NCBI GenBank assembly: GCA_944321725.1
Contig: CALUMI010000008.1
Location: 641 to 64,640 of the forward strand
Reading direction: 5' to 3'
Source of the DNA: an uncultured Muribaculaceae bacterium
GTDB taxonomy: Bacteria > Bacteroidota > Bacteroidia > Bacteroidales > Muribaculaceae
DNA length: 64,000 bases
A program made the position numbers and the translations under genes. This document shows, piece by piece, positions 42,440 to 62,726 of the stretch (within the stretch, counting starts at the first letter, position 1; the number at the start of each line of letters is the position of its first letter). The notes beneath the pieces were generated by a model, which was not told the origin of the DNA, made no database searches, and saw nothing but the letters and a program-made list of their open reading frames with translations.

Positions 42440-42441
42440 AA

Positions 42442-45592: not shown

Positions 45593-45768
45593 CTGTCTAA
45601 ATGTAAATTTGTATCATAGAATTGTCTGATTTACTGTCAATCACATATCTATTTCGCTCTTCTGCTTAGAAAATAATACCGCATGTATATGGTTTTAAAA
45701 TATAGTCTTTATATTTGTAGTACATAAAATCATATAACACGTGGACTGTTACGGGTACCAACGGAGCT

Positions 45769-47823
45769 ATGGTAGGCGGTATTGCCGGAATAAATAAAGG
45801 AGAAAACAGTGTGATACGTAATTGTTACAACACTGCAAAGGTGTTTTCTGATTCCTACAGAGGGGAAATTTGTCCGGCGGAAGAGAATCTCGGCTCTGTC
45901 GATAATTGCTATTTCGATATGCAGACGGCGTCGGTCAGTGGCTCGGAGGGATATGCCACATTGACGCGCGATATGGTTTCCGCTGCCGGATTGGATGGAT
46001 TTGACGCGGAAAAATGGGTGTTTGCCGACGGCCTTTATCCTCGTTTGAAAGGTCTTGAAAATATTCCGGGGGCTAAATTGATGGCATCGGCCGTAATTTG
46101 CTACGCGAATGAGTATGGCGACAATTTCGACCGTCTGTCGTTCATCACATCCGATTTCAAGCTCGGTGCTGCCGATGGTGTGGTTTGGAGTTCCGACAAT
46201 GCGGCCGTGGCGATTGACGGTGGTGATGCCGTTGTGACTCGTTCCGTTGATGGCGATATCGATGTGTCGCTTACGGCGGAAGTTGAAGGCTTGCGTAAAA
46301 TTATTCCGGTTGTGATTGTAGCCGACTTGAAAGGTACTGGGACGGAAACAGACCCGTTCCTGATTGAAAACCAAAATCAACTCAGGTATATTTCGTCTTC
46401 AGTCGCTTCAGGCGTAACATACAAGGGGCAATATATAAAACTTGTGAATGATGTGGATTTGGGCGGCGAGGATAATCCTTTTTCGCCTATCGGTACTAAT
46501 GACGGATATTATTTCTTTGAAGGTAATTTTGACGGAAATGGCAAGACTGTCTATAATCTTTACATAAATCTCCCTAACGATATGTATGTCGGCTTGTTCG
46601 GACGGTTGGGAGAAACGGCTGTGGTTAAGAATCTGATTGTCGGTTCAGGCTATGTGAATGGCAGTGGAAATGTCGGTGCCGTTGTCGGACAGTCTGCCGG
46701 ACAGGTATATAATTGCGGCAATTATGCGGAGGTTACCGGAACATCCATTGTCGGTGGTGTTGTCGGTGCTGTCAGCTATGGCGCGACAGGCGAATTGTCT
46801 AACTGTTTCAATGTAGGTAATGTTTCTTCGCATCGTGGCAGTGTCGGCGGAATTGCAGGAACTGTCAGCTACATCTCAAAAATAACCCATTGCTTCAACT
46901 CCGGGAAAGTTACGGATCTTGCGACAGGAAATACGCCGGGACAGACAGGCGGTATAGTTGCATATACGACCGTACCCGTTGAGTACTGTTATAATGCCGG
47001 AATCGTTTCCGATTTGTCCACAGATGAAAGTCGTTCTATGGCGGGTGGCATCGCAGGCCGTACTCTCGGCTCGGCGGACGTGCCTGTGATAATCGACAAT
47101 TGCATCAATACCGGAACTGTGATGACCTCTACAGGGCTGCAGTGCAATCCGATTGTCGGCGTGGTTGACAATGAAGGTGACGAGATAAGTGCAAGCTATT
47201 ACGACTCTCAGGCAATGCCGGGAGAATATGAAAACGGTTTGGCTGTCGCTACTAAAGACTTTACAGACGCTTCGGCTGTCAGTGAATTGTCGTCTGAGCA
47301 ATGGACGGTATGTAGCGATTCTTATCCCGTATTGAAATGTTTTGAAGGCATGGATGTCGCAAAATTCGCGTCAGCGGCTTTGTTCCTTTCTGACGGTGAT
47401 GATTACACTTCTGTTAAAAACAATTTCAGTTTGACCGGAATTGACGGTGTAAATTGGGTTGTTTCTCCGTATTATGCTTTAGAAGCGCAGGGCACGGAAG
47501 TCACTGTCAATCGCAGGGCGGAAGATACAGAGTGCCGTATAGGGGCTTTCTTTGGAGATGCTGCCGTGAAAGAATTCAACATTTTGTTGAAAGCCGCTGA
47601 AGGCGGTGTATGCTCTTTGTCGGATGACGCTGTTTCTGTTACAGTGTCGGGTAATAATCTGATTATAAGGAATGCTATGGGTGCTGCGGTTTCGATATAC
47701 GATCTTTCCGGGCGTTGTATCTCGTCATTTGAGGCCGGCAGTAATGCGGAAGTCGTAACTATGAACGTGAAAGGCGTATTTATAGTAAAATGCGGTGACT
47801 ATGTGACAAAAGTAGTTTTGTAA
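45769..47823 (+). CDS. GLUG-repeat protein with T9SS C-terminal sorting domain, apparently 5'-truncated (no signal peptide)
   Basis: Repeated GG(I/V)(A/V)G...NC(Y/F)N.G.V units. C-terminal VSIYDLSGRCISSF...GVFIVKCGDYVTKVVL. The open frame extends only to the stop at 45718-45720 and already encodes repeat-like sequence. Confidence 0.6.
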   Translation: MVGGIAGINKGENSVIRNCYNTAKVFSDSYRGEICPAEENLGSVDNCYFDMQTASVSGSEGYATLTRDMVSAAGLDGFDAEKWVFADGLYPRLKGLENIPGAKLMASAVICYANEYGDNFDRLSFITSDFKLGAADGVVWSSDNAAVAIDGGDAVVTRSVDGDIDVSLTAEVEGLRKIIPVVIVADLKGTGTETDPFLIENQNQLRYISSSVASGVTYKGQYIKLVNDVDLGGEDNPFSPIGTNDGYYFFEGNFDGNGKTVYNLYINLPNDMYVGLFGRLGETAVVKNLIVGSGYVNGSGNVGAVVGQSAGQVYNCGNYAEVTGTSIVGGVVGAVSYGATGELSNCFNVGNVSSHRGSVGGIAGTVSYISKITHCFNSGKVTDLATGNTPGQTGGIVAYTTVPVEYCYNAGIVSDLSTDESRSMAGGIAGRTLGSADVPVIIDNCINTGTVMTSTGLQCNPIVGVVDNEGDEISASYYDSQAMPGEYENGLAVATKDFTDASAVSELSSEQWTVCSDSYPVLKCFEGMDVAKFASAALFLSDGDDYTSVKNNFSLTGIDGVNWVVSPYYALEAQGTEVTVNRRAEDTECRIGAFFGDAAVKEFNILLKAAEGGVCSLSDDAVSVTVSGNNLIIRNAMGAAVSIYDLSGRCISSFEAGSNAEVVTMNVKGVFIVKCGDYVTKVVL

Positions 47824-47924
47824 GATTTTATAAATGGAAAAAGTGACCGACTAAAAGTCAAGTGACTTGCAGCCGGTTTCTTTTTTGTATTGGAGTTTTT
47901 CTCTCGAAATCACGTATAAAAGCA

Positions 47925-47957
47925 GATGGCGGCTAAAATATGATTTTAGTCGCCATC
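47925..47957 (-). terminator. hairpin terminator downstream of the CAT-anticodon tRNA
   Basis: GATGGCGGCTAAAAT ATG ATTTTAGTCGCCATC, 15-bp arms with one mismatch. Confidence 0.6.
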
Positions 47958-47963
47958 TTGCTG

Positions 47964-48037
47964 TAGCGGGATCGAGAATTGAACTCGAGACCTCCGGGTT
48001 ATGAATCCGACGCTCTGACCAACTGAGCTATCCCGCC
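47964..48037 (-). tRNA. tRNA with CAT anticodon (elongator Met, or Ile2 if lysidine-modified)
   Basis: Hand-folded: acceptor GGCGGGA/TCCCGCT, D arm GCTC-AGTTGGTCA-GAGC, anticodon loop TTCATAA, T arm TCGAG-TTCAATT-CTCGA. It lacks initiator features. Confidence 0.8.
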
Positions 48038-48048
48038 GTTTGCGAGTG

Positions 48049-48056
48049 CAAAGGTA
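48049..48056 (-). promoter_or_regulatory. Bacteroidota -7 promoter element upstream of the CAT tRNA
   Basis: The minus strand reads TACCTTTG, 11 nt upstream of the tRNA 5' end. Confidence 0.5.
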
Positions 48057-48139
48057 AAACCAATATTTGAAATGTGCAAGCCGAAGCGCAATAATTTTTC
48101 TCAGAAAAATTCTGTAATTTTGTAATTGTAAATAAAAGG

Positions 48140-49846
48140 TTGGTTCACAAAATAAGACATAAATTGGAAACTACAAGCAAAGAGGCGTGCAACATCTTGA
48201 TTGATGTGTTGATAGCTCATGGTGTCAGGAGGGTGGTTCTCTCTCCCGGTTCCCGCAATGCTCCGTTATTGGTGGCATTGTCAAGACGCCGGGAGGTTGA
48301 AAAATATGTAATCGTCGATGAGCGCAGCGCGGCGTTTGCGGCTTTGGGGATGGCCGGGCAGTTAAGCGGGCCTGTCGCGCTTGTGTGTACATCGGGAACA
48401 GCCTTATTGAATTATGCTCCTGCCGTAGCCGAGGCTTATTATCAGAAAATTCCGCTTGTGGTAATTTCAGCCGACCGTCCCAAAGAGTGGATTGATCAGG
48501 ATGACAGCCAGACAATAAGACAGTTCGAAGCTTTGTCGCAATTCGTAAAGAAAAGCTATGACATTCCGGCTCGGTGTGATGACGACACCGCGCGATGGTA
48601 TGTCAACAGGATTGCCAACGATGCGATGATTGAGGCAAATTCGGGTCGTAGAGCTCCTGTGCATATAAATGTGCAGCTTGACGAGCCGCTTGCGCGGTTG
48701 GCGGAGTATAGTAACAAGCAGCGCGTGATTGAGATAACGTTGCCGTCGCAATCTGTTTCCGGCAGTGATATGGAAACTTTGCTCCGAGAGGCTGAAGGCA
48801 AGAATGTTTTGGTGATTTCCGGATTTGGTGAGAAAGGCCCCGATTTGGAGTATGGTTTAAACAAACTTGCGTCATTGCCTAATGTGGCTGTCTTGACAGA
48901 AACCATATCAAATTTGCATTCTCCGAAATTTATACAGGCAATCGACCGCACACTGCTCGCAATGGAGCGTGGCGCGGAGGACTGTTACAAGCCTGATTTG
49001 CTTATAACGGTTGGCGGAGCGATTATTTCAAGAATTGTGAAAACTTTCTTGAGAAAATATAGGGCTGCCTGCCAATGGTATGTGGGTATTGCCGAAACTA
49101 CGGTTGATTGTATGCAGACGCTTACAAGGCGTATTCAGGTTGAGCCGGGCGCATTCTTCCGACAATTCGCAAATTCATACGCCGAAAAGACGTCATCCGA
49201 ATCTGATTTTGCGGGAAAATGGCTTAAATTATACGAGAAAGGCAGAAAACGGCATGAATTGTATTTGGAGTCAATCGAATGGAGTGACATGAGGGCTTTC
49301 TCAACAATAATTCCGTCATTGCCTGATAATTGCCGCGTGCAGTTGTCGAATGGCACGACGATACGTTATGCCCAACTGTTTGGCGACATGTTGAGTCAAG
49401 ACAGTTTTTGCAACAGGGGAGTGTCGGGCATCGACGGCTCCACATCGACAGCGTTGGGTGCGTCGTTGGCTTACGATGGCACTACAGTGCTGATTACCGG
49501 CGACATGAGTTTCAGCTACGACTTGTCTGGTTTGGCCTCGCAATACAATTCCGGCAGGTTTAAAATCATAGTCATGTGTAATGGCGGGGGAGGTATTTTC
49601 CGTTTTGTAAAGGCCACTTCCGATTTGCCTGAATTGGAGCGGTATTTTGAGGTTAAGCGGGATATTCCGGTTGACAGGTATGCGACGGCTTTCGGATTTG
49701 AGTATTTTGAGGCATGTTCGGAGGATGGGCTTAGGAATGTTTTGCCTGAATTTTGGAATAGTGAAAAGGCTTCTATCCTCGCCGTGAAAACCGATAATAT
49801 TGTGAGCGCGGAAACATTGAGAAATTATTTTAAAAGAGATAAATAA
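48140..49846 (+). CDS. menD: SEPHCHC synthase (2-succinyl-5-enolpyruvyl-6-hydroxy-3-cyclohexene-1-carboxylate synthase)
   Basis: ThDP-enzyme pattern with VLSPGSRNAPL and GDMSFSYD...N. The start is TTG, because no in-frame ATG exists upstream of the conserved N-terminus. Confidence 0.9.
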   Translation: MVHKIRHKLETTSKEACNILIDVLIAHGVRRVVLSPGSRNAPLLVALSRRREVEKYVIVDERSAAFAALGMAGQLSGPVALVCTSGTALLNYAPAVAEAYYQKIPLVVISADRPKEWIDQDDSQTIRQFEALSQFVKKSYDIPARCDDDTARWYVNRIANDAMIEANSGRRAPVHINVQLDEPLARLAEYSNKQRVIEITLPSQSVSGSDMETLLREAEGKNVLVISGFGEKGPDLEYGLNKLASLPNVAVLTETISNLHSPKFIQAIDRTLLAMERGAEDCYKPDLLITVGGAIISRIVKTFLRKYRAACQWYVGIAETTVDCMQTLTRRIQVEPGAFFRQFANSYAEKTSSESDFAGKWLKLYEKGRKRHELYLESIEWSDMRAFSTIIPSLPDNCRVQLSNGTTIRYAQLFGDMLSQDSFCNRGVSGIDGSTSTALGASLAYDGTTVLITGDMSFSYDLSGLASQYNSGRFKIIVMCNGGGGIFRFVKATSDLPELERYFEVKRDIPVDRYATAFGFEYFEACSEDGLRNVLPEFWNSEKASILAVKTDNIVSAETLRNYFKRDK

Positions 49847-49858
49847 GTATATACCAAC

Positions 49859-50683
49859 ATGGAGAAAAGAGATTGGAGGACAATAAAAGAATATACGGAT
49901 ATTCTTTTCGAGCAATACAAAGGCATAGCGAAAATCACGATTAACCGCCCGGAGGTCTACAATGCTTTCCGTCCGTTGACAAACACTGAGATGCTCGACG
50001 CTTTCGGCATTTGCCGCGAGCGCGGAGATATCAGGGTGATAGTGTTGACGGGAGCGGGCGACAAAGCTTTTTGTTCAGGCGGCGACCAAAACTACAAGAC
50101 GCAGGGCGGTTATCGTGACAGCGACGGCACCCCGCGCTTGAATGTGCTCGATTTGCATAAAATGATACGCTCAATCCCAAAGCCTGTCATTGCGATGGTC
50201 AACGGCTATGCCATAGGCGGAGGAAACGTGCTTAATGTGGTGTGCGATTTGTCGATAGCGTCTGAAAACGCGCGTTTCGGCCAGACAGGGCCGAAAGTCG
50301 GCAGTTTCGACGGTGGTTTCGGCTCTTCTTATTTGGCGCGATGCGTGGGGCAGAAAAAGACGCGTGAGATTTGGTACTTATGCCGTCAATACACAGCGAA
50401 AGAAGCGGAGCAAATGGGTATGATTAATAAAGTGGTGCCATTCGAGCGGTTGGAGGACGAGACTGTGGAATGGTGCGAAACGATTATGAAGCGCAGCCCG
50501 TTTGCTATCCGTATGATTAAGCGTTGCCTGAACGCCGAGCTCGACGGGCAGCGCGGATTGATGGAATTGGCGGGCGACGCCACGCTGATGTACTATCTTA
50601 TGGATGAGGCCCAAGAGGGCAAAAATGCTTTCTTGGAGAAGCGCGACCCTGATTTTGATCAGTTTCCTAAATTTCCGGGATAG
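49859..50683 (+). CDS. menB: 1,4-dihydroxy-2-naphthoyl-CoA synthase
   Basis: Crotonase fold with [16 protein letters not shown] and a C-terminal [11 protein letters not shown]. Confidence 0.95.
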
Positions 50684-50686
50684 GCG

Positions 50687-51733
50687 ATGAAAGCTAATTA
50701 TTGCCGGTATGTGCTGAAATTCAAGCAACCGGCAGGCACATCGCGCGGTGTGCTTCACGAAAAGGAAACCTATTTCTTGCGTTTGGAGGATGAGAGTGCG
50801 CCCGGCGTGTACGGTATCGGCGAGTGTGCCGTGTTTCGCGGACTTTCGGCCGACGACGTGCCGGAATATGAGGACAAACTTAAGGAGCTTTGCGCGAACA
50901 TCGGGCGTGGTGAGGCTACTGATTTACAAAGTTATCCTTCTATTCAATTCGGCTTGGAAACAGCCATATATGATATCGCAAACGGTGGACGCAGACAGCC
51001 TTTTCCTTCGGCTTTCACAGAAGGCATGGTGGGAATACCTATCAACGGACTTGTGTGGATGGGCAGTAAGGAAGAGATGCTGTCGCGGATAAAAGAGAAG
51101 ATAGAGGCGGGATTTACGACTATAAAGCTAAAGGTAGGTGCAATCAACTTTGAGAGCGAGTTGGAAATGGTGAAATTCATTCGTTCCTGTTATTCCGCCG
51201 ACACGCTGACAATACGTCTTGATGCCAATGGCGGTTTTACGCCTGCCGACGCGCCGCAACGGCTTTCGGAATTTGCCAAATACGGCATTCATTCCATTGA
51301 GCAGCCCATAAAGGCCGGGCAATGGGAGGAGATGCGCCGTTTGTGTGCCGGCTCGCCGATCGACATTGCATTGGATGAGGAGCTTATAGGAATATTCACT
51401 CCTGAGAAAATGGGTGAGATGCTCGATGCGGTGCGCCCCAAGTATATAATACTGAAGCCGGCGTTGGTGGGAGGATTCTCCGGCTCGCAGATGTGGATGC
51501 AACAGGCTGCCGTGCGCGGTATCGGCGGATGGATTACGTCGGCTTTGGAGTCGAATGTTGGGCTGAACGCCATAGCGCAGTGGACGGCTCGTATGGGTGC
51601 CGACATGCCGCAAGGATTGGGTACAGGAGCGTTGTATGTCAACAATATCGGCTCGCCGCTTTCCGTTGTTGGCGATTCACTCCGCTACGACCCGTCTGCC
51701 GCATGGAGCTTCCCCGCCCTCGAATGGCAATGA
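50687..51733 (+). CDS. menC: o-succinylbenzoate synthase (enolase superfamily)
   Basis: TIKLKVG, IRLDANGGF, IEQP and ALDEEL metal-ligand blocks. Confidence 0.85.
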   Translation: MKANYCRYVLKFKQPAGTSRGVLHEKETYFLRLEDESAPGVYGIGECAVFRGLSADDVPEYEDKLKELCANIGRGEATDLQSYPSIQFGLETAIYDIANGGRRQPFPSAFTEGMVGIPINGLVWMGSKEEMLSRIKEKIEAGFTTIKLKVGAINFESELEMVKFIRSCYSADTLTIRLDANGGFTPADAPQRLSEFAKYGIHSIEQPIKAGQWEEMRRLCAGSPIDIALDEELIGIFTPEKMGEMLDAVRPKYIILKPALVGGFSGSQMWMQQAAVRGIGGWITSALESNVGLNAIAQWTARMGADMPQGLGTGALYVNNIGSPLSVVGDSLRYDPSAAWSFPALEWQ

Positions 51734-52103
51734 TGCTACGACTTTCGAATTCTGTGGATGCTTGTATGTGTGTGGTTTGCGATACGTATCAACAGCTCCG
51801 ACGAGGCTGACATCACGGCATGTCATCCTCTGTTTGCGGAGCCTGCGGCGGAGCAAATAGGGGAGGTGGGTCGAAGACCCGGAGGGGTTTGGTATCACAG
51901 ATGAGGCAGGTTACGGGTTTAATTTGGTTATAAGTTTATATGGTTAGGGGCTTATAGTCAGCCGCGCAGTAGTGGCACTCCAGAGATCTTGCGGTAAGCG
52001 AAGCGCAGAGAGTTTTGAAAATTTTTCATTGGGGATTTCGCTATATCGTGGAAATTAGCTATTTTTGAAAATGACATAAGTTCGATATAAGAGTTGACAG
52101 GAC

Positions 52104-52117
52104 ATTGACATGTCAAT
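52104..52117. promoter_or_regulatory. perfect 14-bp palindrome ATTGACATGTCAAT (candidate operator)
   Basis: Self-complementary sequence, preceded by another TTGACA at 52094-52099. Confidence 0.3.
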
Positions 52118-52499
52118 ATATTGTTATATGTAGAGTCTGTTGGCAGGCAACCTGCGGCTAAAGCCGTCGGTTATCGGAACAAAGAGGTTGTGTCAAAGCT
52201 AAAATGGCAACTTTGAAAAATTATAAATTGTAAGTGTGTTATTGGACTTAGCCCTATGAAAACGGGAACAGATTTTCAGAATAAGAGAGCCTCGTGGAGG
52301 CTCCGGGTCGGTAACCCCATGCAAGCGTAGCTATGCGGAGCGCAGCTTGTGGTAGGTGACGGTTATGGAGGCCGATGATTTTGTATGCCTGTTTTCCACG
52401 GATAAGGCCGTGGGTTACGCTACAACAACCCACGGGGTTGGCATCGCCGGCAAATAATAGAGTTTAGATACACTCTCTACTGCCTGTCAAGCTGTTATG

Positions 52500-52510
52500 T
52501 TGACGGTCAA
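52500..52510. promoter_or_regulatory. palindrome TTGAC-G-GTCAA, 47 nt upstream of the CHAT gene start (candidate operator)
   Basis: It has the same TTGAC/GTCAA half-sites as 52104-52117. An extra GTCAA lies at 52486-52490. Confidence 0.25.
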
Positions 52511-52557
52511 TTTGCAAATAAACTTAATTAGATAATTACGTTTTAAATCAATTTATT

Positions 52558-55500
52558 ATGAGGCGCATTATTTTCGGTATGATATTGGTAGGGATTGCGG
52601 TTTCCGCTGTGGCGCAGATGCTTACGCAGCCGTCGGCGGAGTCGGACGCGCTGTTTGCCGCCGGTGTTGATTTGTACAACAAGGGGAAATACCGCGAGGC
52701 GATACCGCTATTCGCAAAATCCGACAGCCTCGACAATGCGCAAATCGACCCAACAAGCAATCGCCGTGACTATTCCTCAATGTGGCTTGCATCGTGTTTT
52801 TACAAATTGGGCGACACTGCCACTGCCGCAGGTATTGATGCCAACTACCGTTTCGCTCCTGTCGACCGCCGCCTTACGGCCAAGTCCGACTCATTGTCGC
52901 AAATCGGAATGGAATATTTCAATCAAGGCGACTACGCAAAAGCCCTCGAATACCTCACTCAATGTGCCGAAATAGAAAAATCGGTATTGGGCGAAAACCA
53001 TATCTTTTATGGAAATTCAATATCATGGATTACCGATTGCTATTTCCAATTGGGTGACTCTGCAAATTTTTTGAAATATCAGAAACTCAAAGTTGATGTG
53101 CTTCGCTACACTGATGGTAAATGTTCAGAAAAATATATTGCAGCTATAACTGACTTAGGCATTCTATATAGCCAAATGTCATTATATAAAGATGCTTTAA
53201 TCAGTTTGCTTGAGGCATACGATTTGTCGGAAAAGTTGGACAAGGATAGGACATATTTGTCTTTTTACATAGCGTGTGACTATACTTCTATAGCCAAGAG
53301 TGGTTCAAGTGGCGATCCTTTGGACTGTCTGATGAAATCCCGTTCTTACTTGGAAGAAACTTTTAAAAGCGCAAATTCCACAGATTCCATAATCAACTCG
53401 TTAGCGCAGTCATTGTATGTTGATGTCGAGCAACTGATAGCTTCGTCACTTTTAAAAAAAGCGGATGATTTAGGCAATGACGGTAATTATAAAGAAGCAT
53501 TGAATTTAAGTGCGGAGGCTTTGTCCATTTGTGAAAAAGTGTTGGGTAAAGAAAACGTTGGATATGTCACATCATTAGGCTATTTGGCAAAATATAACCA
53601 TTTATTGGGGTATAATACAGAAGCCGTGCGTTTAGGCACGGAGGCTTTAGGCATAGCCGGGACAGTATTGGGAAAGGACAGTCCCGGTTACGCATTAATT
53701 CTTAATGATTTGTCGTTTTATCACCATGCTTTAGGCAATGATGATGAAGCTATACCTCTCATTAAGGAGGCATTAGTCATTCGAGAAAAAGTATATGGGA
53801 AAGAACATACCTCATATTGTACGGCCTTGAGTAATTTGGCATCATATTATGCTTCGTCTGAAAATTATTCGGAAGCAATCCGTATAGGAACAGAAGCTGT
53901 GGGGCTATGTGAAAAGTCATTTGGAAAAGAAAGTCCGGTTTATGCGACATTACTTAACGATTTGTCGACATGGTATAAATCATCAGGAGATTATGATAAT
54001 GCAATACGACTTGTTTCTGAGGCTTTGGATATTCGGGAACGGATATTTGGGAAAGAGTCGCCTGCTTATTCTGCATCGTTATATAATTTAGCATCATATT
54101 ATAATTTGTCAGGTAATTATAAGGAAGCTGTTCGATTAGGTGCGGAAATGTTGAGTTTAGATGAAAAATTATATGGCAATAGAACTCTTAGTTATGCAGC
54201 TTCTTTAAATAATTTGGCTTTATATAATGCCAATCTTAGGAATTATTCGGAGGCGATACGTTTGGTGTCAGAATCTTTAAATATTCAGAAAGATTTGGTA
54301 GGTAAAGAACATCCTGATTATGCCATTTCTTTGGCAAACTTGGCATCTTATAATTCGTATCTTGGTAATTATACAGAAGCAAAACATTTAGTTTCTGAGG
54401 CCTTGACTGTGTTTGAAAAAGTCTACGGTAAAGAATCTTCTGAGTATTCAACATTTTTGATTAGTTTGTCATCGTATGAATTTTCATTAGGAAATTATTC
54501 AGAAGCAATGCGGTTAACGTATGAGGCTTTAGCTCTTCAGGAAAAATTATTTGGAAAAGAATCTCCTGCATACGCAACTGCATTGGCAAACTTGGCTTCT
54601 AGAAATTTCCAACTTGGAAATTATTTAGAGGCCTTTCGTATTGATTTGCAGGTGATAGATATACGAGAAAAGATGTTAGGTAAAAATCATCCATATTATG
54701 CATTATCATTGTACAGATTGGCGCAAGATTATTTTGTTATGGGCAATTATAACAACGCTTTGCATTTAGTAAAAAATGCTTTGAAAATTGACGAAATGGC
54801 AAATGGAAGGGATCATCCTGATTCAGACTATTTGAATCTTTTAGCAGCATGTTATGCATATTCGGGGAATTATGAGGAAGCGATACGTGTTGGAAAAGAA
54901 GCATTAGATATTGAAGAACAAATAGTTGGCAAAGGACATGTTAACACGTCTACATATTTAAATAATTTAGCATTTTACAACTCCTTAGTGGGGAATTATT
55001 CTGAGGCTGTACAACTTGGGACTGAAGCATTGAAAATAAGAGAGAAAGCGTATGGAAAAAAGTCCATTGATTACGCGACTTCTTTAAACAATCTTGGGAA
55101 ATATAATTACTATTTAAGGAACTATTCTGAGGCAATACGTTTGGGAAGTGAAGCATTGATTCTCACAGCAAATTCGGTTGGTAAAAATCATCCTTATACC
55201 GCTAAGGCATTGGAAAACTTGGCCACATATAATTGGAAGATTGGCTATGCTGACGCTACGAAGTATTGCGTTGAGGCAACAGAAGTGTTGAAAGGGATTG
55301 TGCGGCGGACTTTTGCAGATTTGACAGCGAAGGAGAGAAATTTGTTTTGGGAACAATATAAGGCATGGTTTGAGGGGACAATCCATTCGATTGCCTACGA
55401 TATGCCGTCGGACTCGTTGACGGAGAACGGCTACAACGGCGCGCTGATGGCGAAAGGGCTGTTGCTCAACAGCGAAATGGAGCTAAGCACGCTGCTCAAA

Positions 55501-56997
55501 GAAAGCGGTGATGAGGAGGTTGCGAATATCTACAGCAATCTGAAAAATTTGCGTCTGCAAATCAACAAACTGTATGAGATGTCCATAGAGAATCGTCCGC
55601 TCGATGTTGACTCGCTTGAGCGGGTGGCGCAAGGCTTGGAGCGACAGCTGGTGCAACGCTCGAAAGCATACGGCGACTATACCGCCAATCTCGTCATCGA
55701 TTGGAAGCAGGTGAGGCAGCGGCTTGGCGACGGCGAAATGGCCGTTGAGTTCGTGTCGTTTCCGCTGCGTGGTGACAGCGTGATGTATGCCGCCTACTGT
55801 CTGCGTGGCGATATGGCCTCGCCGAAGATGGTGCCGCTGTTCGAGGAGCGGCAACTGACGGACATGGACAAGAATTTCTACCTGTCGTCACCGATGCTCT
55901 ACGACCTTGTATGGAAACCGTTGGAGGGGGAGATGGAGGGTGTGAGCACTGTATATTTCTCACCTTCGGGAGAGCTCTACAACATCCCGATAGAAAACCT
56001 TCCGGCCAACGACAGTATCTACAACTCCGACATCCGCGACTACCGGCGGCTGTCGTCGACCCGGCAGCTGGCTTTGCGCAGGGACGCCGTAGATGTGCGG
56101 CAGGCGGCAGTGTACGGCGGACTGAGGTATGACGCCGATACCACAGTGATAGTCAACAACAGCCGCAAGTACCGCGCGGAGGAGACCGGCCTGTGGAAGG
56201 AGGAAAGCCGCGCCGTTGCCGACAGCCTCAACCTGCGCGACGGCGTGAAATATCTGCCCGGCACAAAAACGGAGGCTGAGGACATCGACATGGCTTTGGT
56301 GACGGCAAGGATAAACACAGAGCTGTACACCGACACAACAGGCACGGAGGCGTCGTTCAAAGCCCTGTCGGGCAAGGGGGTCAACGCCATGCACATAGCC
56401 ACGCACGGCTTCTATTGGACGGAGCGCGAAGCGGCGCGGCTCGACAACCTCGTTTTTCTCGGCGACGACATGCCGGCGGCCGTGGCTGAGGACAAGGCTC
56501 TGACACGCTCCGGGCTGCTGTTCTCCGGAGCAAACACGGCGTTGCGAGGACTGCCGCTGCCCGACGGCGTGGACGACGGCATTCTGACGGCCAAAGAAAT
56601 ATCGGCGTTGGACTTGCGCGGCCTCGACTTGGTGGCGTTGTCGGCCTGCCAGACCGGACTTGGCGAGATTTCGGGCGACGGGGTGTTCGGGCTGCAGCGC
56701 GGCTTCAAGAAAGCCGGAGCCAACACGCTGCTGATGAGCCTGTGGAAGGTGGACGACAACGCCACTCGGCTGCTGATGACGCGGTTCTACGGCAACCTGC
56801 TTTCCGGAATGGACAAATACGGAGCTTTGCATGAGGCGCAGCGATATTTGCGGGAATTGGATGTGGAGAGAAGAATAGAGTACACCCCAGCCCAACAGAA
56901 ATATGACGACAAGCCCGCCTTCGAGATTGTCCGCGAGAAAAAATACGCCAATCCCTACTATTGGGCGGCATTCGTGCTGCTCGACGGCGTGAATTGA
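52558..56997 (+). CDS. secreted TPR-repeat CHAT-domain (caspase-like) protein
   Basis: 1479 aa. Signal peptide MRRIIFGMILVGIAVSAVA-Q. 14 kinesin-light-chain-type 42-aa TPR units. The C-terminal CHAT domain has MHIATHGF (His1283, codon 56404-56406) and LSACQTGLGE (Cys1364, codon 56647-56649). Confidence 0.85.
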   Translation: MRRIIFGMILVGIAVSAVAQMLTQPSAESDALFAAGVDLYNKGKYREAIPLFAKSDSLDNAQIDPTSNRRDYSSMWLASCFYKLGDTATAAGIDANYRFAPVDRRLTAKSDSLSQIGMEYFNQGDYAKALEYLTQCAEIEKSVLGENHIFYGNSISWITDCYFQLGDSANFLKYQKLKVDVLRYTDGKCSEKYIAAITDLGILYSQMSLYKDALISLLEAYDLSEKLDKDRTYLSFYIACDYTSIAKSGSSGDPLDCLMKSRSYLEETFKSANSTDSIINSLAQSLYVDVEQLIASSLLKKADDLGNDGNYKEALNLSAEALSICEKVLGKENVGYVTSLGYLAKYNHLLGYNTEAVRLGTEALGIAGTVLGKDSPGYALILNDLSFYHHALGNDDEAIPLIKEALVIREKVYGKEHTSYCTALSNLASYYASSENYSEAIRIGTEAVGLCEKSFGKESPVYATLLNDLSTWYKSSGDYDNAIRLVSEALDIRERIFGKESPAYSASLYNLASYYNLSGNYKEAVRLGAEMLSLDEKLYGNRTLSYAASLNNLALYNANLRNYSEAIRLVSESLNIQKDLVGKEHPDYAISLANLASYNSYLGNYTEAKHLVSEALTVFEKVYGKESSEYSTFLISLSSYEFSLGNYSEAMRLTYEALALQEKLFGKESPAYATALANLASRNFQLGNYLEAFRIDLQVIDIREKMLGKNHPYYALSLYRLAQDYFVMGNYNNALHLVKNALKIDEMANGRDHPDSDYLNLLAACYAYSGNYEEAIRVGKEALDIEEQIVGKGHVNTSTYLNNLAFYNSLVGNYSEAVQLGTEALKIREKAYGKKSIDYATSLNNLGKYNYYLRNYSEAIRLGSEALILTANSVGKNHPYTAKALENLATYNWKIGYADATKYCVEATEVLKGIVRRTFADLTAKERNLFWEQYKAWFEGTIHSIAYDMPSDSLTENGYNGALMAKGLLLNSEMELSTLLKESGDEEVANIYSNLKNLRLQINKLYEMSIENRPLDVDSLERVAQGLERQLVQRSKAYGDYTANLVIDWKQVRQRLGDGEMAVEFVSFPLRGDSVMYAAYCLRGDMASPKMVPLFEERQLTDMDKNFYLSSPMLYDLVWKPLEGEMEGVSTVYFSPSGELYNIPIENLPANDSIYNSDIRDYRRLSSTRQLALRRDAVDVRQAAVYGGLRYDADTTVIVNNSRKYRAEETGLWKEESRAVADSLNLRDGVKYLPGTKTEAEDIDMALVTARINTELYTDTTGTEASFKALSGKGVNAMHIATHGFYWTEREAARLDNLVFLGDDMPAAVAEDKALTRSGLLFSGANTALRGLPLPDGVDDGILTAKEISALDLRGLDLVALSACQTGLGEISGDGVFGLQRGFKKAGANTLLMSLWKVDDNATRLLMTRFYGNLLSGMDKYGALHEAQRYLRELDVERRIEYTPAQQKYDDKPAFEIVREKKYANPYYWAAFVLLDGVN
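53470..55260 (+). repeat. 14 diverged tandem repeats of about 126 nt (42-aa TPR units) inside the CHAT ORF
   Basis: Recurring ...NYSEAIRLG.EAL.I.EK..GKE.P.YA..LNNLA.Y... units. The copies are diverged at the DNA level, not identical. Confidence 0.8.
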
Positions 56998-57004
56998 CAA
57001 AGGA

Positions 57005-58024
57005 ATGGAACTGAGGATAAACAATAGGATATGCAGGAATGCGGAGGAGGCAAAAGGAGTGGCATCATCCGCATTTTGCGGTTTTCTTGAGAGTTGGTTT
57101 GATGCCGGTGATTTTGTGATAGGGCATACTTCCGGCTCTACGGGCAAGCCGAAAGAGATACATTTGCTGAAAAGCGACATGCTGCAGTCGGCACGGGCAA
57201 CCAACAATTTTTTCGGTCTTGACGGCGGCAGCCGTTTGCTGCTTTGCTTGTCGCCTGATTATATAGCCGGCAAGATGATGATTGTCCGGGCAATAGAGGC
57301 GGGCGCGGAGATTGTGGAAGAGCGGCCTTCCAACCGTCCGCTTGAAGGATACTCCGGACAGCCTTTCGACTTTGTCGCCGTAGTGCCGTCGCAAGCCCGT
57401 TATTTGGTTGGGCATAGCGACAGATTGCAATATGTGAGGACAATGATTGTCGGAGGCGGAGCTGTGACTGACAGCTTGAGATTGGCGCTTGCCGACAGTG
57501 GAGTCGACGCTTATTCCACGTATGGAATGACCGAAACCTGCTCGCATGTGGCTCTTGCTAAAATCGACAAGGAATTGCGCCCGTTCAGGTCTTTGCCGTC
57601 ATTCTCTTTTTCAACGGATGAGAGGGGATGCCTCGTAATCGACGCTCCGCAAATGTCGTTCCGCCGCATTGTCACCAACGACATTGTGGAACTCCTTGAT
57701 TCCACGTCTTTCTATTGGAAAGGAAGATATGACAATGTGATAAACACAGGCGGCATAAAGGTGTTTCCGGAAGAGATAGAACAAAAAATCGCGCCGCTGT
57801 TGGATTGCAGGTTTTATATCGCTTCGCGGCGGTCGGAGAAATGGGGAGAAGAAATCATATTGGTGATTGAGAAGGGCGGAATTTCCCAAGAGGAGAAATA
57901 TTCGCTTTTGGCGCGGCTGAAAAATATTCTTCCGGCCTATAGCGTGCCTAAGGATATAATTGCCGTGCCATTGCTCAAGATGACTACCTCCGGCAAGATA
58001 ATACGGGAGCGTCTTGTTAAATAA
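57005..58024 (+). CDS. menE: o-succinylbenzoate-CoA ligase (short AMP-binding enzyme)
   Basis: AMP-binding motifs GHTSGSTGKPK, YGMTET and GGIKVFPEEIE. It lies in men-gene context. Confidence 0.8.
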   Translation: MELRINNRICRNAEEAKGVASSAFCGFLESWFDAGDFVIGHTSGSTGKPKEIHLLKSDMLQSARATNNFFGLDGGSRLLLCLSPDYIAGKMMIVRAIEAGAEIVEERPSNRPLEGYSGQPFDFVAVVPSQARYLVGHSDRLQYVRTMIVGGGAVTDSLRLALADSGVDAYSTYGMTETCSHVALAKIDKELRPFRSLPSFSFSTDERGCLVIDAPQMSFRRIVTNDIVELLDSTSFYWKGRYDNVINTGGIKVFPEEIEQKIAPLLDCRFYIASRRSEKWGEEIILVIEKGGISQEEKYSLLARLKNILPAYSVPKDIIAVPLLKMTTSGKIIRERLVK

Positions 58025-58116
58025 TGTTATTGTTTGGACTGATTCCAAAGAAAGCAGCCCATATATTTTCATAAACGGAGGCATATTGTTTCCTTTGCAC
58101 TTGAAAAGATTAGTGT

Positions 58117-60549
58117 ATGAGGTTATCTGATTTGAAAACCGGCGAAACCGGTGTCATTGTTAAAATATTGGGTCACGGCTCTTTCCGCAAGCGTGTCATG
58201 GAAATGGGGTTTGTGAAAGGAAAGAAAATTTTGGTGGAGCTCAACGCGCCGCTTCGCGACCCCATAAAATATAAGATTCTGGACTATGAGATTTCTTTGC
58301 GCCGAGCGGAGGCAGATTTGATAGAGGTGATAAAAGAGCCTGCCGACGGGGATTTCACTCCTCCTCAGGATGTGGCTTTTATCAGCGAGGATGGCGACGG
58401 TTTCATCAACACTTTCGACAAGGAGCGACGCACTATCAACGTCGCGCTGATAGGCAATCCTAATTGCGGCAAGACCTCTCTTTTCAATTTCGCGTCGGGT
58501 TCCAAAGAGCATGTGGGCAACTATAGCGGTGTGACTGTTGACGCGAAGACCGGAACGATGAGATATAAGGGGTATTTGTTCAATATCGTTGATTTGCCCG
58601 GCACATACTCGCTGTCGGCCTATTCTCCGGAAGAATTATATGTAAGACGCTATCTTCACGACGAAGTTCCCGATGTGATAATCAACGTTGTTGACTCATC
58701 TAATCTCGAACGCAATTTTTACCTTACGACAGAGCTTATCGACATGGATCGCAGCATGGTCATCGCTTTGAATATGTATGACGAACTTGAGCGCAGCAAG
58801 GTGGAATTTGATTATGAGAGTTTGTCGAGGATGATAGGTGTGCCGATGGTGCCTACCGTGTCGAAAACCGGAAGAGGAATACATGAGCTGTTCGACACAA
58901 TAATCGAGGTTTATGAGGGACGCAATGAGGTTGTAAGGCATGTGCATATCGGTTTTGGCAACGATATAGAATCTGCGGTAAAAGAGATACAGACCGCATT
59001 GAAAAAGGAGAATGAGCTTGACATGCACTTCTCCGCCCGCTATCTTTCCATAAAATTGCTTGAAGACGACAAGGAAGTAGTGTCGATGCTGTGCAAACTA
59101 CCTCATTACAAAGAGATAAGGAAACTGCGCGACGAGCTTGTGGCGCGTATTGAGGAAACGCATAAAGAAGACATCGCCACTACGATCGCGAGCTCGAAGT
59201 ATGGGTTTGTTTCCGGTGCGTTGCGCGAAACTCTTAAAGAGTCGGAGAAAGAAGAGTCAAAGACTACTTCAATGATAGATTCTGTGGTGACAAGCCGTAT
59301 TTTCGGTTTTCCGATATTCATATTCCTTATGTGGCTGATGTTTTGGGCGACATTTGAGGTTGGACAGTATCCTATGGACTGGATAGACGCGCTTGTCGGG
59401 TGGATTGGCGACATGATAGGTACATATTTGCCAGACGGACCGGTTAAGGACATGCTTGTGGATGGAGTAATCGGAGGTGTGGGAGGCGTTATTGTGTTTC
59501 TTCCGAATATACTGATACTTTATTTTTTCATCTCTTTTATGGAGGATTCCGGATATATGGCCCGCGCGGCTTTTATCATGGACAAGATTATGCACAAAAT
59601 AGGGCTTCACGGCAAATCGTTCATTCCGATGATTATGGGATTTGGCTGCAACGTGCCTGCCATTATCGCCACCCGCACCATAGAAAGCAAAAGCAGCCGG
59701 CTGATTACCATATTGATTAACCCTTTCATGTCGTGCGGTGCGCGGTTGCCTATCTATCTGCTTTTGGTGGGAGCCTTTTTCCCGAACCATGCGAGTTTGG
59801 TGTTGCTGGGGCTGTATGCTTTGGGAGTGATTGTTGCCGTGATTACGGCAAAATTGTTGCGCAAGTTCCATTTCAAGAAAGATGAAACGCCTTTTGTAAT
59901 GGAGTTGCCGCCTTACCGTATCCCCACAATGAAAGCCACAATGCGCCACATGTGGGCTAAAGGCCAACAGTATTTGAAAAAAATGGGTGGGGTTATTCTT
60001 GTCGCAAGCCTTATAATTTGGCTGTTGAGCTATTTTCCGCGTCCTAATGCAGAGCAGATAGAAGAAAGCCGCGTGGAATATGCGCAAACTCATGTTTCCG
60101 GTAATTTGGACGACGCTGCAATAGAAAAAATAGCCGCTACGGAAAATTCTTATCTCGGGCGGATAGGCAAGTTCATACAGCCTGTATTCGAACCGCTTGG
60201 CTTCAATTGGAAGATGACCATCTCTCTGCTTTCCGGAACTGTGGCAAAAGAAACGGTGGTGTCGACGATAGGAGTGCTTTACAGTGGCGATGATGCTGCC
60301 GATGAAGCGGCTTTGGCTGAACGGATACAGGAGGTTAATCCCCGTACAGGACAACCGGATTTTACACCGTTGGTGGCATTCTGCTTCTTGGTGTTTGTGC
60401 TTCTTTATGTGCCGTGTATCGCCACTGTGACAGCGATAGTGAAAGAAACGGGGAGTTGGAAATACGGGGTGTTCACCCTCTGCTATAATACGTTTGTGGC
60501 ATGGTTGTTCGCGTTTGTCATTTATCAGATAGGCTCTTTATTTATTTAG
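58117..60549 (+). CDS. feoB: ferrous iron transporter FeoB with fused N-terminal FeoA domain
   Basis: FeoA-like SH3 N-terminus (LSDLKTGETGVIVKI), G domain GNPNCGKTSLFN / DLPGTYS, and a polytopic C-terminus. Confidence 0.9.
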   Translation: MRLSDLKTGETGVIVKILGHGSFRKRVMEMGFVKGKKILVELNAPLRDPIKYKILDYEISLRRAEADLIEVIKEPADGDFTPPQDVAFISEDGDGFINTFDKERRTINVALIGNPNCGKTSLFNFASGSKEHVGNYSGVTVDAKTGTMRYKGYLFNIVDLPGTYSLSAYSPEELYVRRYLHDEVPDVIINVVDSSNLERNFYLTTELIDMDRSMVIALNMYDELERSKVEFDYESLSRMIGVPMVPTVSKTGRGIHELFDTIIEVYEGRNEVVRHVHIGFGNDIESAVKEIQTALKKENELDMHFSARYLSIKLLEDDKEVVSMLCKLPHYKEIRKLRDELVARIEETHKEDIATTIASSKYGFVSGALRETLKESEKEESKTTSMIDSVVTSRIFGFPIFIFLMWLMFWATFEVGQYPMDWIDALVGWIGDMIGTYLPDGPVKDMLVDGVIGGVGGVIVFLPNILILYFFISFMEDSGYMARAAFIMDKIMHKIGLHGKSFIPMIMGFGCNVPAIIATRTIESKSSRLITILINPFMSCGARLPIYLLLVGAFFPNHASLVLLGLYALGVIVAVITAKLLRKFHFKKDETPFVMELPPYRIPTMKATMRHMWAKGQQYLKKMGGVILVASLIIWLLSYFPRPNAEQIEESRVEYAQTHVSGNLDDAAIEKIAATENSYLGRIGKFIQPVFEPLGFNWKMTISLLSGTVAKETVVSTIGVLYSGDDAADEAALAERIQEVNPRTGQPDFTPLVAFCFLVFVLLYVPCIATVTAIVKETGSWKYGVFTLCYNTFVAWLFAFVIYQIGSLFI

Positions 60550-60568
60550 CAAATTGAATATAAATAGT

Positions 60569-60576
60569 TAACTTTG
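60569..60576 (+). promoter_or_regulatory. Bacteroidota -7 promoter element upstream of metG
   Basis: TAACTTTG abuts the feoB terminator stem. Confidence 0.4.
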
Positions 60577-60607
60577 CGGTTGCTTGTCGTCAGGCAACCG
60601 CTTTTTG
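60576..60607 (+). terminator. intrinsic terminator after feoB
   Basis: GCGGTTGC ... GCAACCGC stem followed by TTTTTG. Confidence 0.7.
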
Positions 60608-60617
60608 TTGAAATAAA

Positions 60618-62669
60618 ATGAAAATAAATATGGAGAAGAAATTCAAACGCACATTAGTAACAACGGCTTTGCCATACGCTAACGGGCCTGTTCACATAGG
60701 ACATTTGGCCGGTGTCTATGTTCCGGCTGACATTTATACCAGATATTTGCGTCTTAAAGGTGAGGATGTCATTATGATAGGAGGCTCGGATGAGCATGGA
60801 GTCCCCATCACAATCAAGGCGAAAAAGGAGGGGGTAACTCCGCAGAATATAGTTGACCGTTATCATAAGATTATAAAGGACTCATTCGAGGAGTTCGGAA
60901 TATCATTTGATATTTATTCACGTACCACCTCTAAAATTCATTGTAAGACCGCAAGCGACTTTTTCCGTGAATTATATGATAAAGGCGAGTTCATAGAAAA
61001 GACATCGATGCAATATTATGACGAGGAGGCTCATCAGTTCCTTGCCGACCGTTATATTGTGGGGACATGTCCGCATTGCAAGAATGACCACGCCTATGGC
61101 GATCAATGCGAGGCGTGCGGAACATCGTTGAACGCTACCGACTTGATAGATCCGCATTCTGCTATAACAGGCAACAAACCGGTGTTGAGAGAAACGAAGC
61201 ATTGGTATCTTCCTTTGGATAAATGGGAACCAAAATTGCGTAAATGGATTCTTGAGGAGCATAAAGAATGGAAGCCCAACGTTTACGGGCAATGCAAATC
61301 ATGGCTTGATATGGGATTGCAGCCGCGTGCCGTCAGCCGCGACTTGGATTGGGGTGTGCCTGTTCCTGTGGAAGGAGCGGAAGGCAAAGTGCTGTATGTG
61401 TGGTTTGACGCTCCTATAGGATATATCTCAAACACAAAAGAGCTTTTGCCTGACACATGGGAAAAATATTGGAAAAGCGAGGATACCCGTATAATCAATT
61501 TTATAGGTAAAGACAATATCGTATTCCATTGCATTGTTTTTCCGGCTATGCTTATGGCGGAAGGCTCGTATCAGTTGCCGGAAAATGTCCCCGCAAATGA
61601 GTTCTTGAATCTTGAGGGGGATAAAATATCCACATCGCGTAATTGGGCTGTATGGCTGCATGAATATTTGCGCGACTTGCCCGGCAAACAGGACGTTTTG
61701 CGCTATGTATTGACAGCTAACGCTCCTGAAACTAAAGACAATGATTTTACGTGGAAAGATTTTCAGGCTCGCAATAACAATGAGCTTGTCGCAATATTGG
61801 GTAATTTCGTGAACCGCACGATAGTGCTTACTCATAAGTATTATAACGGGGTAGTGCCGAATGCGGGTGAATTTACTGATTATGATTATGCTACGTTGAA
61901 AGAGTTCGCGGATGTAAAGCAGAATCTTGAAAAATATCTCGACACATTCCGTTTCCGTGACGCTTTGAAGGAGGCGATGAATCTTGCCCGTATCGGAAAC
62001 AAATATCTTGCGGATACTGAGCCGTGGAAAATTGCCAAGACAGATATGGCGAGGGTAGACACAATTCTTAACATTGCGATGCAAATCACGGCAAATCTTG
62101 CTATCGCGTTTGAGCCGTTTTTGCCGTTTATGTCGAAGCGTTTGCGCGGTATGCTGAACATGGAGGCGTGCGATTGGAACCGTTTGGGAGATGTCGACAT
62201 AATAGCTTCCGGACAAACGATAAACAAGGCGGAGCTGTTGTTTGAAAAGATAGAGGACGATGTGATTGAGGCGCAGATAAAAAAACTTCACGACACGAAA
62301 GAGGCCAATAAACTGAATGACTTCAAGCCGGCTCCTGTTGCGGAGAACATTCCGTATGATGATTTCTTGAAACTTGACATCCGTGTCGGTAAAGTGTTGG
62401 AATGCGCGAAAGTCCCGAAAGCGGATAAATTGCTTCAATTTAAAATTGATGACGGAATGGGGGGACGTACCATAGTTTCCGGCATAGCCAAGTATTATAA
62501 GCCTGAGGATTTGATTGGAAAGGAGCTCTGTTTTATTGCTAATTTTGAGCCCCGTAAGCTGAAAGGGGTAATGTCGGAAGGAATGATTTTGTCGGCGGAG
62601 AATCCAGACGGATCATTAGTCGTAATCGGTCCACAGGGTGAGGTTAAACCGGGTTGTCAGGTGAGATAA
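60618..62669 (+). CDS. metG: methionyl-tRNA synthetase with C-terminal tRNA-binding domain
   Basis: HIGH motif ([12 protein letters not shown]), zinc knuckle CPHC...C..CG and the KMSKS equivalent (KISTSR). The start could be at 60630. Confidence 0.95.
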
Positions 62670-62697
62670 AATAATATATTCTGCACCGGATTTGCTT

Positions 62698-62705
62698 TAT
62701 CTTTG
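62698..62705 (+). promoter_or_regulatory. Bacteroidota -7 promoter element upstream of ruvA
   Basis: TATCTTTG lies 21 nt upstream of the ATG. Confidence 0.45.
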
Positions 62706-62726
62706 TTGCGATATATTTGATATCTT

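Follow-up and report, generated by a model that had tools for sequence, protein, structure and literature searches.

In the 64-kb stretch of uncultured Muribaculaceae DNA analysed here (the window), a gene for a large protein with tetratricopeptide repeats (TPR) and a C-terminal CHAT (caspase-like) domain lies between menC and menE, in the middle of what otherwise reads as a menDBCE operon followed by feoAB. We compared this locus with the men loci of other Bacteroidales. The arrangement very probably goes back to one old, lineage-specific insertion of an exported TPR-CHAT gene, together with its leader, into menDBCE(-feoAB), before the species of one Candidatus Limisoma-like clade, all of them uncultured gut Bacteroidales, diverged. 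In their common ancestor, a member of a multi-copy TPR-CHAT family would have inserted between menC and menE, bringing with it about 0.5 kb of its own leader with a promoter box and structured hairpins. menE would then have become the distal gene of a CHAT-menE(-feoAB) message starting at the leader promoter, possibly with additional read-through from the menD promoter. A preliminary description of the window had given the spacers of 12 and 3 nt within menDBC, the 824-nt stretch without an open reading frame (ORF), the 1479-aa TPR-CHAT ORF and the start of menE 7 nt after it, and all of these coordinates hold (Table 1). It had left the choice between an insertion event and a functional link of the caspase-like protein with quinone biosynthesis.

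A probable insertion at the menC/menE junction

Eighty MenE-anchored loci (designated by L numbers) were taken from species-representative genomes of the Genome Taxonomy Database (GTDB), found via a graded alignment of MenE homologs, and the proteins of the window were placed on the fetched loci by tblastn. Both genes are present in 79 loci, and in 76 of these menE follows menC directly, with an estimated gap of -125 to +55 nt. Muribaculaceae, Barnesiella, Coprobacter, Butyricimonas, Odoribacter, Sanguibacteroides and others are represented, outgroups included; the block between menC and menE in the window was thus no part of the menDBCE operon in its ancestral form. The CHAT gene is lacking in L005, L033 and L095, which are the nearest outgroups. 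In L005 and L033 the order is menDBC-menE-feoB-metG (MenE 62-65%, FeoB 83-84% and MetG 89-90% identical to the window proteins), and L095 shows menDBC-menE-feoB and then the contig end, with a menC-menE gap of 6 nt and a MenE that is 60% identical. No CHAT homolog was found by tblastn within 10 kb of any of the MenE-anchored men loci outside the clade. As a separate observation, the sole non-clade locus with a sizeable menC-menE gap is L012 (1100-1798), where about 696 nt of AT-rich sequence separate the two genes.

The CHAT gene was found at the junction only in the Candidatus Limisoma-like clade, which comprises the window, L002-L004, L084, L085, L091-L094 and L096. It lies directly 5' of menE in the window, L084, L085, L091, L092, L094, L002, L003 and L004, and menC is also visible upstream in L002, L004 and L096; in L093 the upstream sequence is too short to show the CHAT gene. 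MenE is 94% identical to that of the window in L084 and L085 and 72% identical in L091-L093 and L094. L002 and L003 are metagenome contigs, and L096 is a 184-kb contig of the L002 type, the one further locus obtained when JGI metagenomes were scanned with the leader block. L004 is the GenBank metagenome-assembled genome (MAG) of Candidatus Limisoma gallistercoris, whose genus is placed by NCBI under Bacteroidales incertae sedis, and carries an intact CHAT gene of 1222 aa. Since the insertion is common to several species that are about 20% apart (the difference in housekeeping DNA between the window and L002 or L004) and is missing outside the clade, it is old within the clade. The synteny comparison that the preliminary description had called for thus gives a clear result: the gene occupies the junction in close relatives and is missing from it in distant ones, which indicates an old clade-specific insertion and not a recent event in this genome. 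On the distribution of these sequences, one gain would be far more parsimonious than many losses.

That the CHAT gene was mis-joined to the men locus during assembly, across a repeated multi-copy gene, is extremely improbable. The family is indeed multi-copy and repeat-rich, and many of the short clade contigs, in fact most of them, break inside the gene (L084, L085, L091, L092 and L094). However, the succession menC-leader-CHAT-menE was assembled independently in the window, L002, L004 and L096, from different samples and with different assemblers, the CHAT ORF runs at both ends without a break into unique sequence, and the tight CHAT-menE junction is present in seven independent contigs.

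The extent of the inserted unit can be read from a copy of the gene outside the men locus. The 824 nt between menC and the CHAT gene had been described as ORF-free, and there is indeed no ORF of more than 59 aa on either strand of 51734-52557; the stretch is not featureless, however, since its 3' 545 nt form a conserved leader that accompanies the TPR-CHAT gene. Homologous leaders precede the CHAT gene of L002, L004 and L096 and also that of L001, which is located between IMPDH and tsaD, unconnected with men. Beyond the CHAT stop codon the window and L001 are no longer homologous. Because L001 shares the leader and the homology ends at this codon, the inserted unit is the leader plus the ORF. 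A six-frame ORF list and tblastn of the neighbouring proteins gave no gene remnant in the spacer, and an Rfam scan of 44000-60000 (E <= 1) returned two tRNAs only, with no match in the spacer. The simplest guess for the mode of arrival is ectopic recombination or duplication of a resident paralog.

The TPR-CHAT protein and its variability

By Pfam, the large ORF encodes about 12 TPR_10/TPR_12 units followed by a C-terminal CHAT domain (PF12770; E = 2.6e-55, 188 bits against a cut-off of 24, profile positions 7-286 of 289). The catalytic dyad His1283-Cys1364 is invariant in a 40-sequence alignment. A confident AlphaFold2 (AF2) model of residues 881-1479 (pLDDT 84.9, pTM 0.85) matched Csx29, DdvA, separase and SAVED-CHAT in Foldseek with a probability of 1.0 and gingipains with 0.8-1.0, all of them clan CD folds. 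The TM-scores of these matches reach only 0.3-0.5, owing to a different arrangement of the domains, at a sequence identity of about 12%; a sequence search of the PDB with the TPR-CHAT protein gave no match, so that the matches come from the fold search alone. An exact look-up of the 1479-aa sequence found no record. The N-terminus resembles a signal peptide for signal peptidase I and is directly followed by the TPRs, and inspection of 37 near-full-length homologs showed an N-terminus of this type in 30. As predicted from its sequence, the protein is most likely a cysteine protease that is exported by Sec and either stays in the periplasm or is secreted. A partner or substrate protein would be bound by the long TPR superhelix and cleaved by His1283-Cys1364.

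The TPR units of the window have a periodicity of 126 nt and are 60-75% identical at the DNA level. A recent tandem duplication as the source of the extra TPRs was discarded, since units that are just 60-75% identical indicate an old array. The helical linker between the array and the CHAT domain is 85-91% identical to the clade copies and is the best-conserved part of the gene. The ratio of nonsynonymous to synonymous substitution rates (dN/dS) is 0.11-0.17 for the C-terminal half of the CHAT gene and 0.13-0.15 for menE, which is intact; both genes are under purifying selection.

These data bear on the coupling to quinone biosynthesis that had been offered as the alternative to an insertion. 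If the TPR-CHAT protein acted in or regulated menaquinone biosynthesis or feoAB-dependent iron uptake, its position could have been kept for co-regulation, and the CHAT-menE-feoAB linkage in fact holds throughout the clade despite about 20% DNA divergence, persists in L003 although menDBC has moved away, shows an operon-like CHAT-menE spacing of 7-8 nt and joins two genes that are both under purifying selection. We nevertheless consider such a role very improbable. MenD, MenB, MenC and MenE are enzymes of the cytoplasm, whereas the signal peptide would take the TPR-CHAT protein out of it; a CHAT gene is lacking from about 76 other Bacteroidales men loci; and the gene looks disrupted in two relatives in which menE is intact. 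In addition, the preserved linkage is equally explained by reliance of menE on an upstream promoter. The preliminary description had asked whether homologs of the protein are men-linked. The other family members examined are not: the paralog-like L001 copy and the distant homologs stand in contexts unrelated to men, namely beside a PIF1 helicase and a Kdo transferase gene in L086, next to a CHASE2 gene in L089 and among unannotated neighbours in L090. The coupling hypothesis is thus not supported, in view of the predicted export of the protein, the presence of its multi-copy family elsewhere and the distribution of CHAT genes around men loci.

The two halves of the gene differ in base composition. 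In the window, the GC content at third codon positions (GC3) is 0.23-0.41 in the TPR array (core 0.23-0.29) and 0.64-0.81 in the CHAT half, compared with 0.45-0.61 in the neighbouring genes. The same split is present in L001 (10001-13018), L002 (10001-13114), L004 (6074-9742) and L084 (3-3017); in L089 and L090, which are distant homologs, it is less pronounced, whatever the genomic background. It could reflect differing recombination or mutation regimes in each half, or exchange of arrays from an AT-rich pool.

The gene also varies between closely related strains. The window and L084 are 99-100% identical at the nucleotide level over 58600-64000, and only 90-96% identical over a tract (55400-58600) that includes the CHAT 3' half, menE and the first 500 nt or so of feoAB. 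In this tract dS is 0.21-0.27, compared with 0.03 in metG, and dN/dS stays low, which points to imported diverged alleles and not to relaxed constraint. Relaxed selection was rejected for the divergence of MenE as well, with a dN/dS of about 0.14 and a dS that is itself raised about 7-fold. Upstream of the tract, the TPR arrays of the window and L084 share repeat-level similarity at most (<=68% for DNA, <=62% for the protein units). Within Candidatus L. gallistercoris (L002, L004 and L094), FeoAB is 99.6-99.9% identical, MenE 88-94% and CHAT 89%. The non-men copy in L001 is 88-90% identical to the men-linked alleles of L002-L004, which is as close as these are to each other. In L084 (3-1283) the TPR units are near-identical, with GKEHPDYATSLSNLAGYNSSLGNY repeated, which implies recent intragenic amplification or homogenisation, unlike the old, diverged units of the window.

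Such variability would be expected if the protein were an extracytoplasmic sensor-protease under diversifying selection by phage, competitor or host proteins, with an incidental position in the men locus and menE hitch-hiking. We regard this as possible, at clearly less than even chance. The contrast between TPR arrays with repeat-level similarity only and 99-100% identity downstream, the raised dS of the CHAT-menE-feoA tract over its background and the like contrast within Candidatus L. gallistercoris all point in this direction, as does the occurrence of several copies in one sample (L001 and L086, both from ERZ16268075). Moreover, the only characterised periplasmic TPR-CHAT protein, DdvA, is a structural match and is a proposed sensor of a phage signal (PMC11506125). 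On the other hand, slippage and recombination make repeat arrays turn over fast whether or not selection acts, the block has no defence genes next to it, and the argument is built on two within-species comparisons in which all sequences are MAG or metagenome contigs. Membership of a known defence system was dismissed, since PADLOC gave only a weak TPR match and no CHAT or Cas match. This account extends the single insertion proposed above more than it excludes it. A bolder version, which we hold to be rather unlikely, is that the exported TPR-CHAT proteins of gut Bacteroidales form a multi-copy, strain-hypervariable periplasmic recognition system, one copy of which became the obligatory promoter donor of menE, a gene of an essential pathway, in the Limisoma clade. 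Genomes that are identical in other respects would then swap entire AT-rich TPR arrays and retain the GC-rich protease half, the targets would be phage, competitor or host proteins, and the dependence of menE would lock a hypervariable locus in the genome.

Leader, junction and expression of menE

The insertion as we reconstruct it leaves menE behind a foreign gene, and we examined which signals could serve its transcription. The Bacteroidetes -7 consensus is TAnnTTTG and the median 5' untranslated region (UTR) in Bacteroides is 32 nt (PMC7366714). Two candidate promoters lie in the leader. In the distal one, TATTTTTG is an exact -7 consensus in the best-conserved block of the leader, within which AATTAGCTAnnTTTGA is invariant in four leader copies; its use would imply a 5' UTR of about 485 nt. 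The proximal box TCAATTTG lies in a block that is unchanged in 4/4 aligned leaders; transcripts starting from it would have a 5' UTR of about 35 nt, a length typical of Bacteroides. A perfect palindrome, TTGACATGTCAA, follows the distal promoter-like block and may be an operator or another binding site of a regulator; an imperfect version of the repeat is present in L002 and L096, and none in L001 or L004. A sigma-70 scan match (11/12) at 52094-52122 was set aside, since its consensus is not that of Bacteroidetes and it overlaps the palindrome; it is probably irrelevant. Further upstream, an exact TAnnTTTG (TAATTTTG) found by motif scan in the tRNA-Met/menD intergenic region is a candidate -7 box for menD.

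The leader RNA is more stable than shuffled controls (z = -2.9) and contains a cluster of GC-rich hairpins. In the alignment, the pairing of the second stem is kept by a two-sided change, with CCCACCGC...GCGGTGGG in L001 and CCCACGGC...GCCGTGGG in L004. A genome-wide repetitive extragenic palindromic (REP) element was dropped as an explanation, as each leader hairpin occurs once in the 64-kb window and, in the clade loci, beside CHAT genes only. An invertible promoter (inverton) was likewise abandoned: the inverted repeats are weak and short, and none brackets the conserved promoter block.

The 7-nt junction between the CHAT gene and menE is identical in L084 and L085 and measures 8 nt in L091-L094, so that a tight junction is common to three lineages (window/L084/L085, L091-L093 and L094). 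In L002-L004 it is widened to 190-266 nt by a clade-specific multi-hairpin element of the same kind as the hairpin cluster of the leader. L094, with the tight junction, and L002 and L004, with the expanded one, are one species, as their FeoAB are 99.6-99.9% identical; junction type therefore varies within a species. In L002 the element, about 65 nt long, stands on both sides of the CHAT gene as a direct repeat of 89-94% identity. It is not found on the 3' side of the CHAT gene in the window, and in the loci examined it occurs beside CHAT genes only. It could be a miniature inverted-repeat transposable element (MITE)-like sequence, an RNA-stabilising element or a terminator-like one.

A motif scan found no exact TAnnTTTG in the last 1.9 kb or so of the CHAT ORF, and no terminator-like hairpin with a T-run was found between menC and menE except a weak 5-bp candidate at 52360. 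In L003, which has neither menDBC nor the leader upstream, the CHAT-menE-feoAB linkage is preserved. This arrangement fits reliance of menE on transcription through the CHAT gene; it comes from a single contig, in which the CHAT gene is split. Taken together, the arrangement of these signals suggests that menE is most likely co-transcribed with the CHAT gene.

Several observations weigh against parts of this reconstruction. One-mismatch -7 boxes such as GATATTTG (56841-56848) lie within the 3' end of the CHAT gene and could give menE a promoter of its own. The CHAT gene of L002 (9468-13114) is called as two ORFs of 178 and 1037 aa with a 4-nt, frameshift-like overlap, and that of L003 is split into 519 and 596 aa (in L096, of the L002 type, the reading frame remains open as far as the locus extends). 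These splits are assembly errors in repeat-rich MAGs, or else some strains can do without the protein. The upstream context of L003 could be a real rearrangement or an assembly chimera. The signal peptide was judged only by eye and by hydrophobicity. Concerning the mechanism of arrival, domain annotation gave no transposase or integrase in or near the block, no direct repeats of at least 30 nt flank it in the window, and no other mobile-element hallmark, or target-site duplication of assessable length, was seen to mark the insertion.

With respect to the L003 contig itself, an EngB-like GTPase gene adjoins its CHAT gene with a 9-nt gap (6371-10673). Compared with the window (37898-38512 and 52552 onward), about 14 kb are gone, comprising a leucine-rich repeat (LRR) protein, DsbD, MazG, a topoisomerase, tRNA-Gln, the GLUG protein, tRNA-Met, menDBC and the leader.

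Table 1. Features of the men locus and of the inserted block (coordinates of the window unless another locus is named).
Feature	Position	Strand	Remarks
Candidate menD promoter, -7 box TAATTTTG	48115-48122	+	17 nt before menD ORF start
menD-menB-menC	48140-51733	+	5' part of ancestral menDBCE operon; ORFs, Pfam, NCBIfam
menD	48140-49846	+	ORF map
menB	49859-50683	+	ORF map; 12-nt gap after menD
menC	50687-51733	+	ORF map; 3-nt gap after menB
ORF-free stretch, 824 nt	51734-52557		Between menC and TPR-CHAT ORF
Proximal spacer, about 280 nt	51734-52012	+	No blastn counterpart in any fetched locus
Conserved leader, 545 nt	52013-52557	+	Accompanies TPR-CHAT gene
Candidate distal CHAT promoter	52036-52067	+	TTTC, 20-nt spacer, TATTTTTG (52060-52067)
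Perfect 12-bp palindrome TTGACATGTCAA	52105-52116		Just 3' of conserved promoter-like block
GC-rich hairpin cluster	52286-52435	+	
Hairpin AGCCTCGTGGAGGCT	52288-52302		
Hairpin CCACGGATAAGGCCGTGG	52396-52413		
Hairpin CCGTGGGTT/AACCCACGG	52408-52435		
Candidate proximal promoter box TCAATTTG	52507-52514	+	One mismatch to TAnnTTTG; 43 nt before ATG
TPR-CHAT gene, 1479 aa, intact	52558-56997	+	ORF map, Pfam
Predicted signal peptide, 20 aa	52558-52617	+	MRRIIFGMILVGIAVSAVA before Q; read by eye and hydrophobicity
TPR array, 42-aa/126-nt units	52888-55257	+	GC3 0.23-0.41
Conserved helical linker, TPR array to CHAT	55258-55896	+	Helical in AF2 model
Diverged recombination tract (against L084)	55400-58600	+	CHAT 3' half, menE, first ~500 nt of feoAB
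CHAT (caspase-like) domain	55897-56979	+	GC3 0.71-0.81
Catalytic His1283	56404-56406		ATHGF
Catalytic Cys1364	56647-56649		LSACQTG
CHAT/menE junction, 7 nt	56998-57004	+	TGA-CAAAGGA-ATG
menE, 339 aa	57005-58024	+	Short Bacteroidales-type o-succinylbenzoate-CoA ligase
feoAB	58117-60549	+	
metG	60618-62669	+	
Multi-hairpin element AGCCTCGTAGAGGCT..CCCACGGCTnnAGCCGTGGG..CGGCTTCGTAGATGCCG..CAGCCTTTATAAGGCTG	L002 9325-9391 and 13226-13284; L003 ~10700-10860; L004 ~9840-9990		

Annotation of the locus and relation to known CHAT systems

All genes from menD to metG are co-directional, homologs of MenD, MenB, MenC and MenE lie in one cluster, and the order menDBC is kept across about 80 Bacteroidales loci. 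MenD and MenB pass the NCBIfam equivalog cut-offs (356 bits against 244 and 467 bits against 380), and MenC is slightly below its own (126.6 against 130.55). The top scores of the 339-aa MenE are to menE models, yet stay far under all NCBIfam menE cut-offs (100.9 against 330). This shortfall arises because MenE is of the short Bacteroidales form, with about 315-350 aa compared with about 440-480 aa for the NCBIfam models, and automated annotation would probably call such proteins just 'AMP-binding protein'. Its adenylate-forming motifs are intact and are invariant across a 23-sequence alignment. We name it MenE on the best model match, these motifs and the menDBC-E synteny in about 80 Bacteroidales genomes. 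Upstream of menD, a gene for a GLUG-motif protein (45769-47823) is flanked by tRNA-Gln (45477-45548, + strand) and tRNA-Met (47963-48037, - strand). The protein has 684 aa in the window and 1000 aa in L002 and L096, with 91% identity over the shared part between the window and L002 (2007-5009). Synteny between the window and L002 is lost just 5' of this gene (window 32462 to 45426).

For annotators, it follows that no quinone-related role should be inferred from the adjacency of CHAT and men genes; a literature search found no report tying the two together. The locus is ordinary in kind, a known protein family at an unusual genomic address. It is a tidy natural case of an interrupted operon whose downstream pathway gene, menE, has persisted with purifying selection acting on it, probably through transcription of the inserted gene. 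The GC3 split, the replacement of TPR arrays and the recombination tract extending into neighbouring genes could matter more than the men question.

The 599 C-terminal residues of the window protein have more than 4400 homologs, mostly of about 1000 aa, and the named ones are recorded as 'CHAT domain-containing protein' from Prevotella or Prevotellaceae. No characterisation of this large Bacteroidales TPR-CHAT family was found in the literature, and to our knowledge no member of the subfamily has been studied experimentally. The window protein is 45-79% identical to thousands of database CHAT proteins and shares with the generic Bacteroidales members the TPR_10/TPR_12 plus CHAT layout, the His-Cys dyad and the signal-peptide N-terminus. 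It differs from them in length (1479 aa compared with the typical 1000 aa or so), because it has about 10 extra TPR units, and in location: its gene type is inside a men operon, and no other family member examined outside the clade is. Two distant homologs show a neighbour of another kind. In L089 (10096-11340), and possibly in L090 (9573-10763), the TPR-CHAT gene is directly followed by a gene for a CHASE2-domain membrane protein and a small ORF. This CHAT-CHASE2 pairing, which is missing from the window, may be conserved among distant homologs; a literature search for the pair found nothing.

In general, little is known of TPR-CHAT proteins (PMC11506125). DdvA of Myxococcus xanthus is a transmembrane anti-sigma factor with a periplasmic TPR-CHAT part (PDB 8ROT/8RW5), a cytoplasmic zinc-binding anti-sigma domain at the N-terminus, a transmembrane helix and an extracytoplasmic function (ECF) sigma gene adjacent to its own. 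It is without a three-helix motif of the active site and has been proposed to be a protease that senses a phage-derived signal (PMC11506125). DdvA and the window protein have in common an extracytoplasmic TPR-CHAT part (as predicted for the latter) and a His-Cys dyad, with a Foldseek E of about 1e-6. Their identity is about 11-12%, and the window protein has only a cleavable signal peptide: we found no anti-sigma domain or transmembrane helix at its N-terminus and no sigma-factor gene nearby. The best structural match is Csx29 of the type III-E CRISPR Craspase (Foldseek E about 1e-9, TM-score 0.34-0.52), in which the order of TPR and CHAT is the same. Csx29, however, is a cytoplasmic partner of Cas7-11 (gRAMP), and its gene belongs to a CRISPR locus with cas7-11, csx30/31 and a CRISPR array, whereas the window protein has a signal peptide; no cas genes were found in the examined part of the window or in the loci, and the neighbours of the window gene are men, feoAB, metG and other housekeeping genes.

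At the level of the operon, the locus resembles other operon-interrupting insertions in that a foreign co-directional gene with its own promoter, here the candidate promoter of the leader, is followed by a downstream pathway gene that is retained and constrained. It differs from them in that there are no signs of a mobile element and that the inserted gene is a paralog-like copy from within the lineage, not an obvious transfer between phyla. Finally, the periplasmic recognition by TPR-CHAT proteins considered above would follow a logic comparable to that of NLR-type and Avs-type sensors, but in the periplasm.

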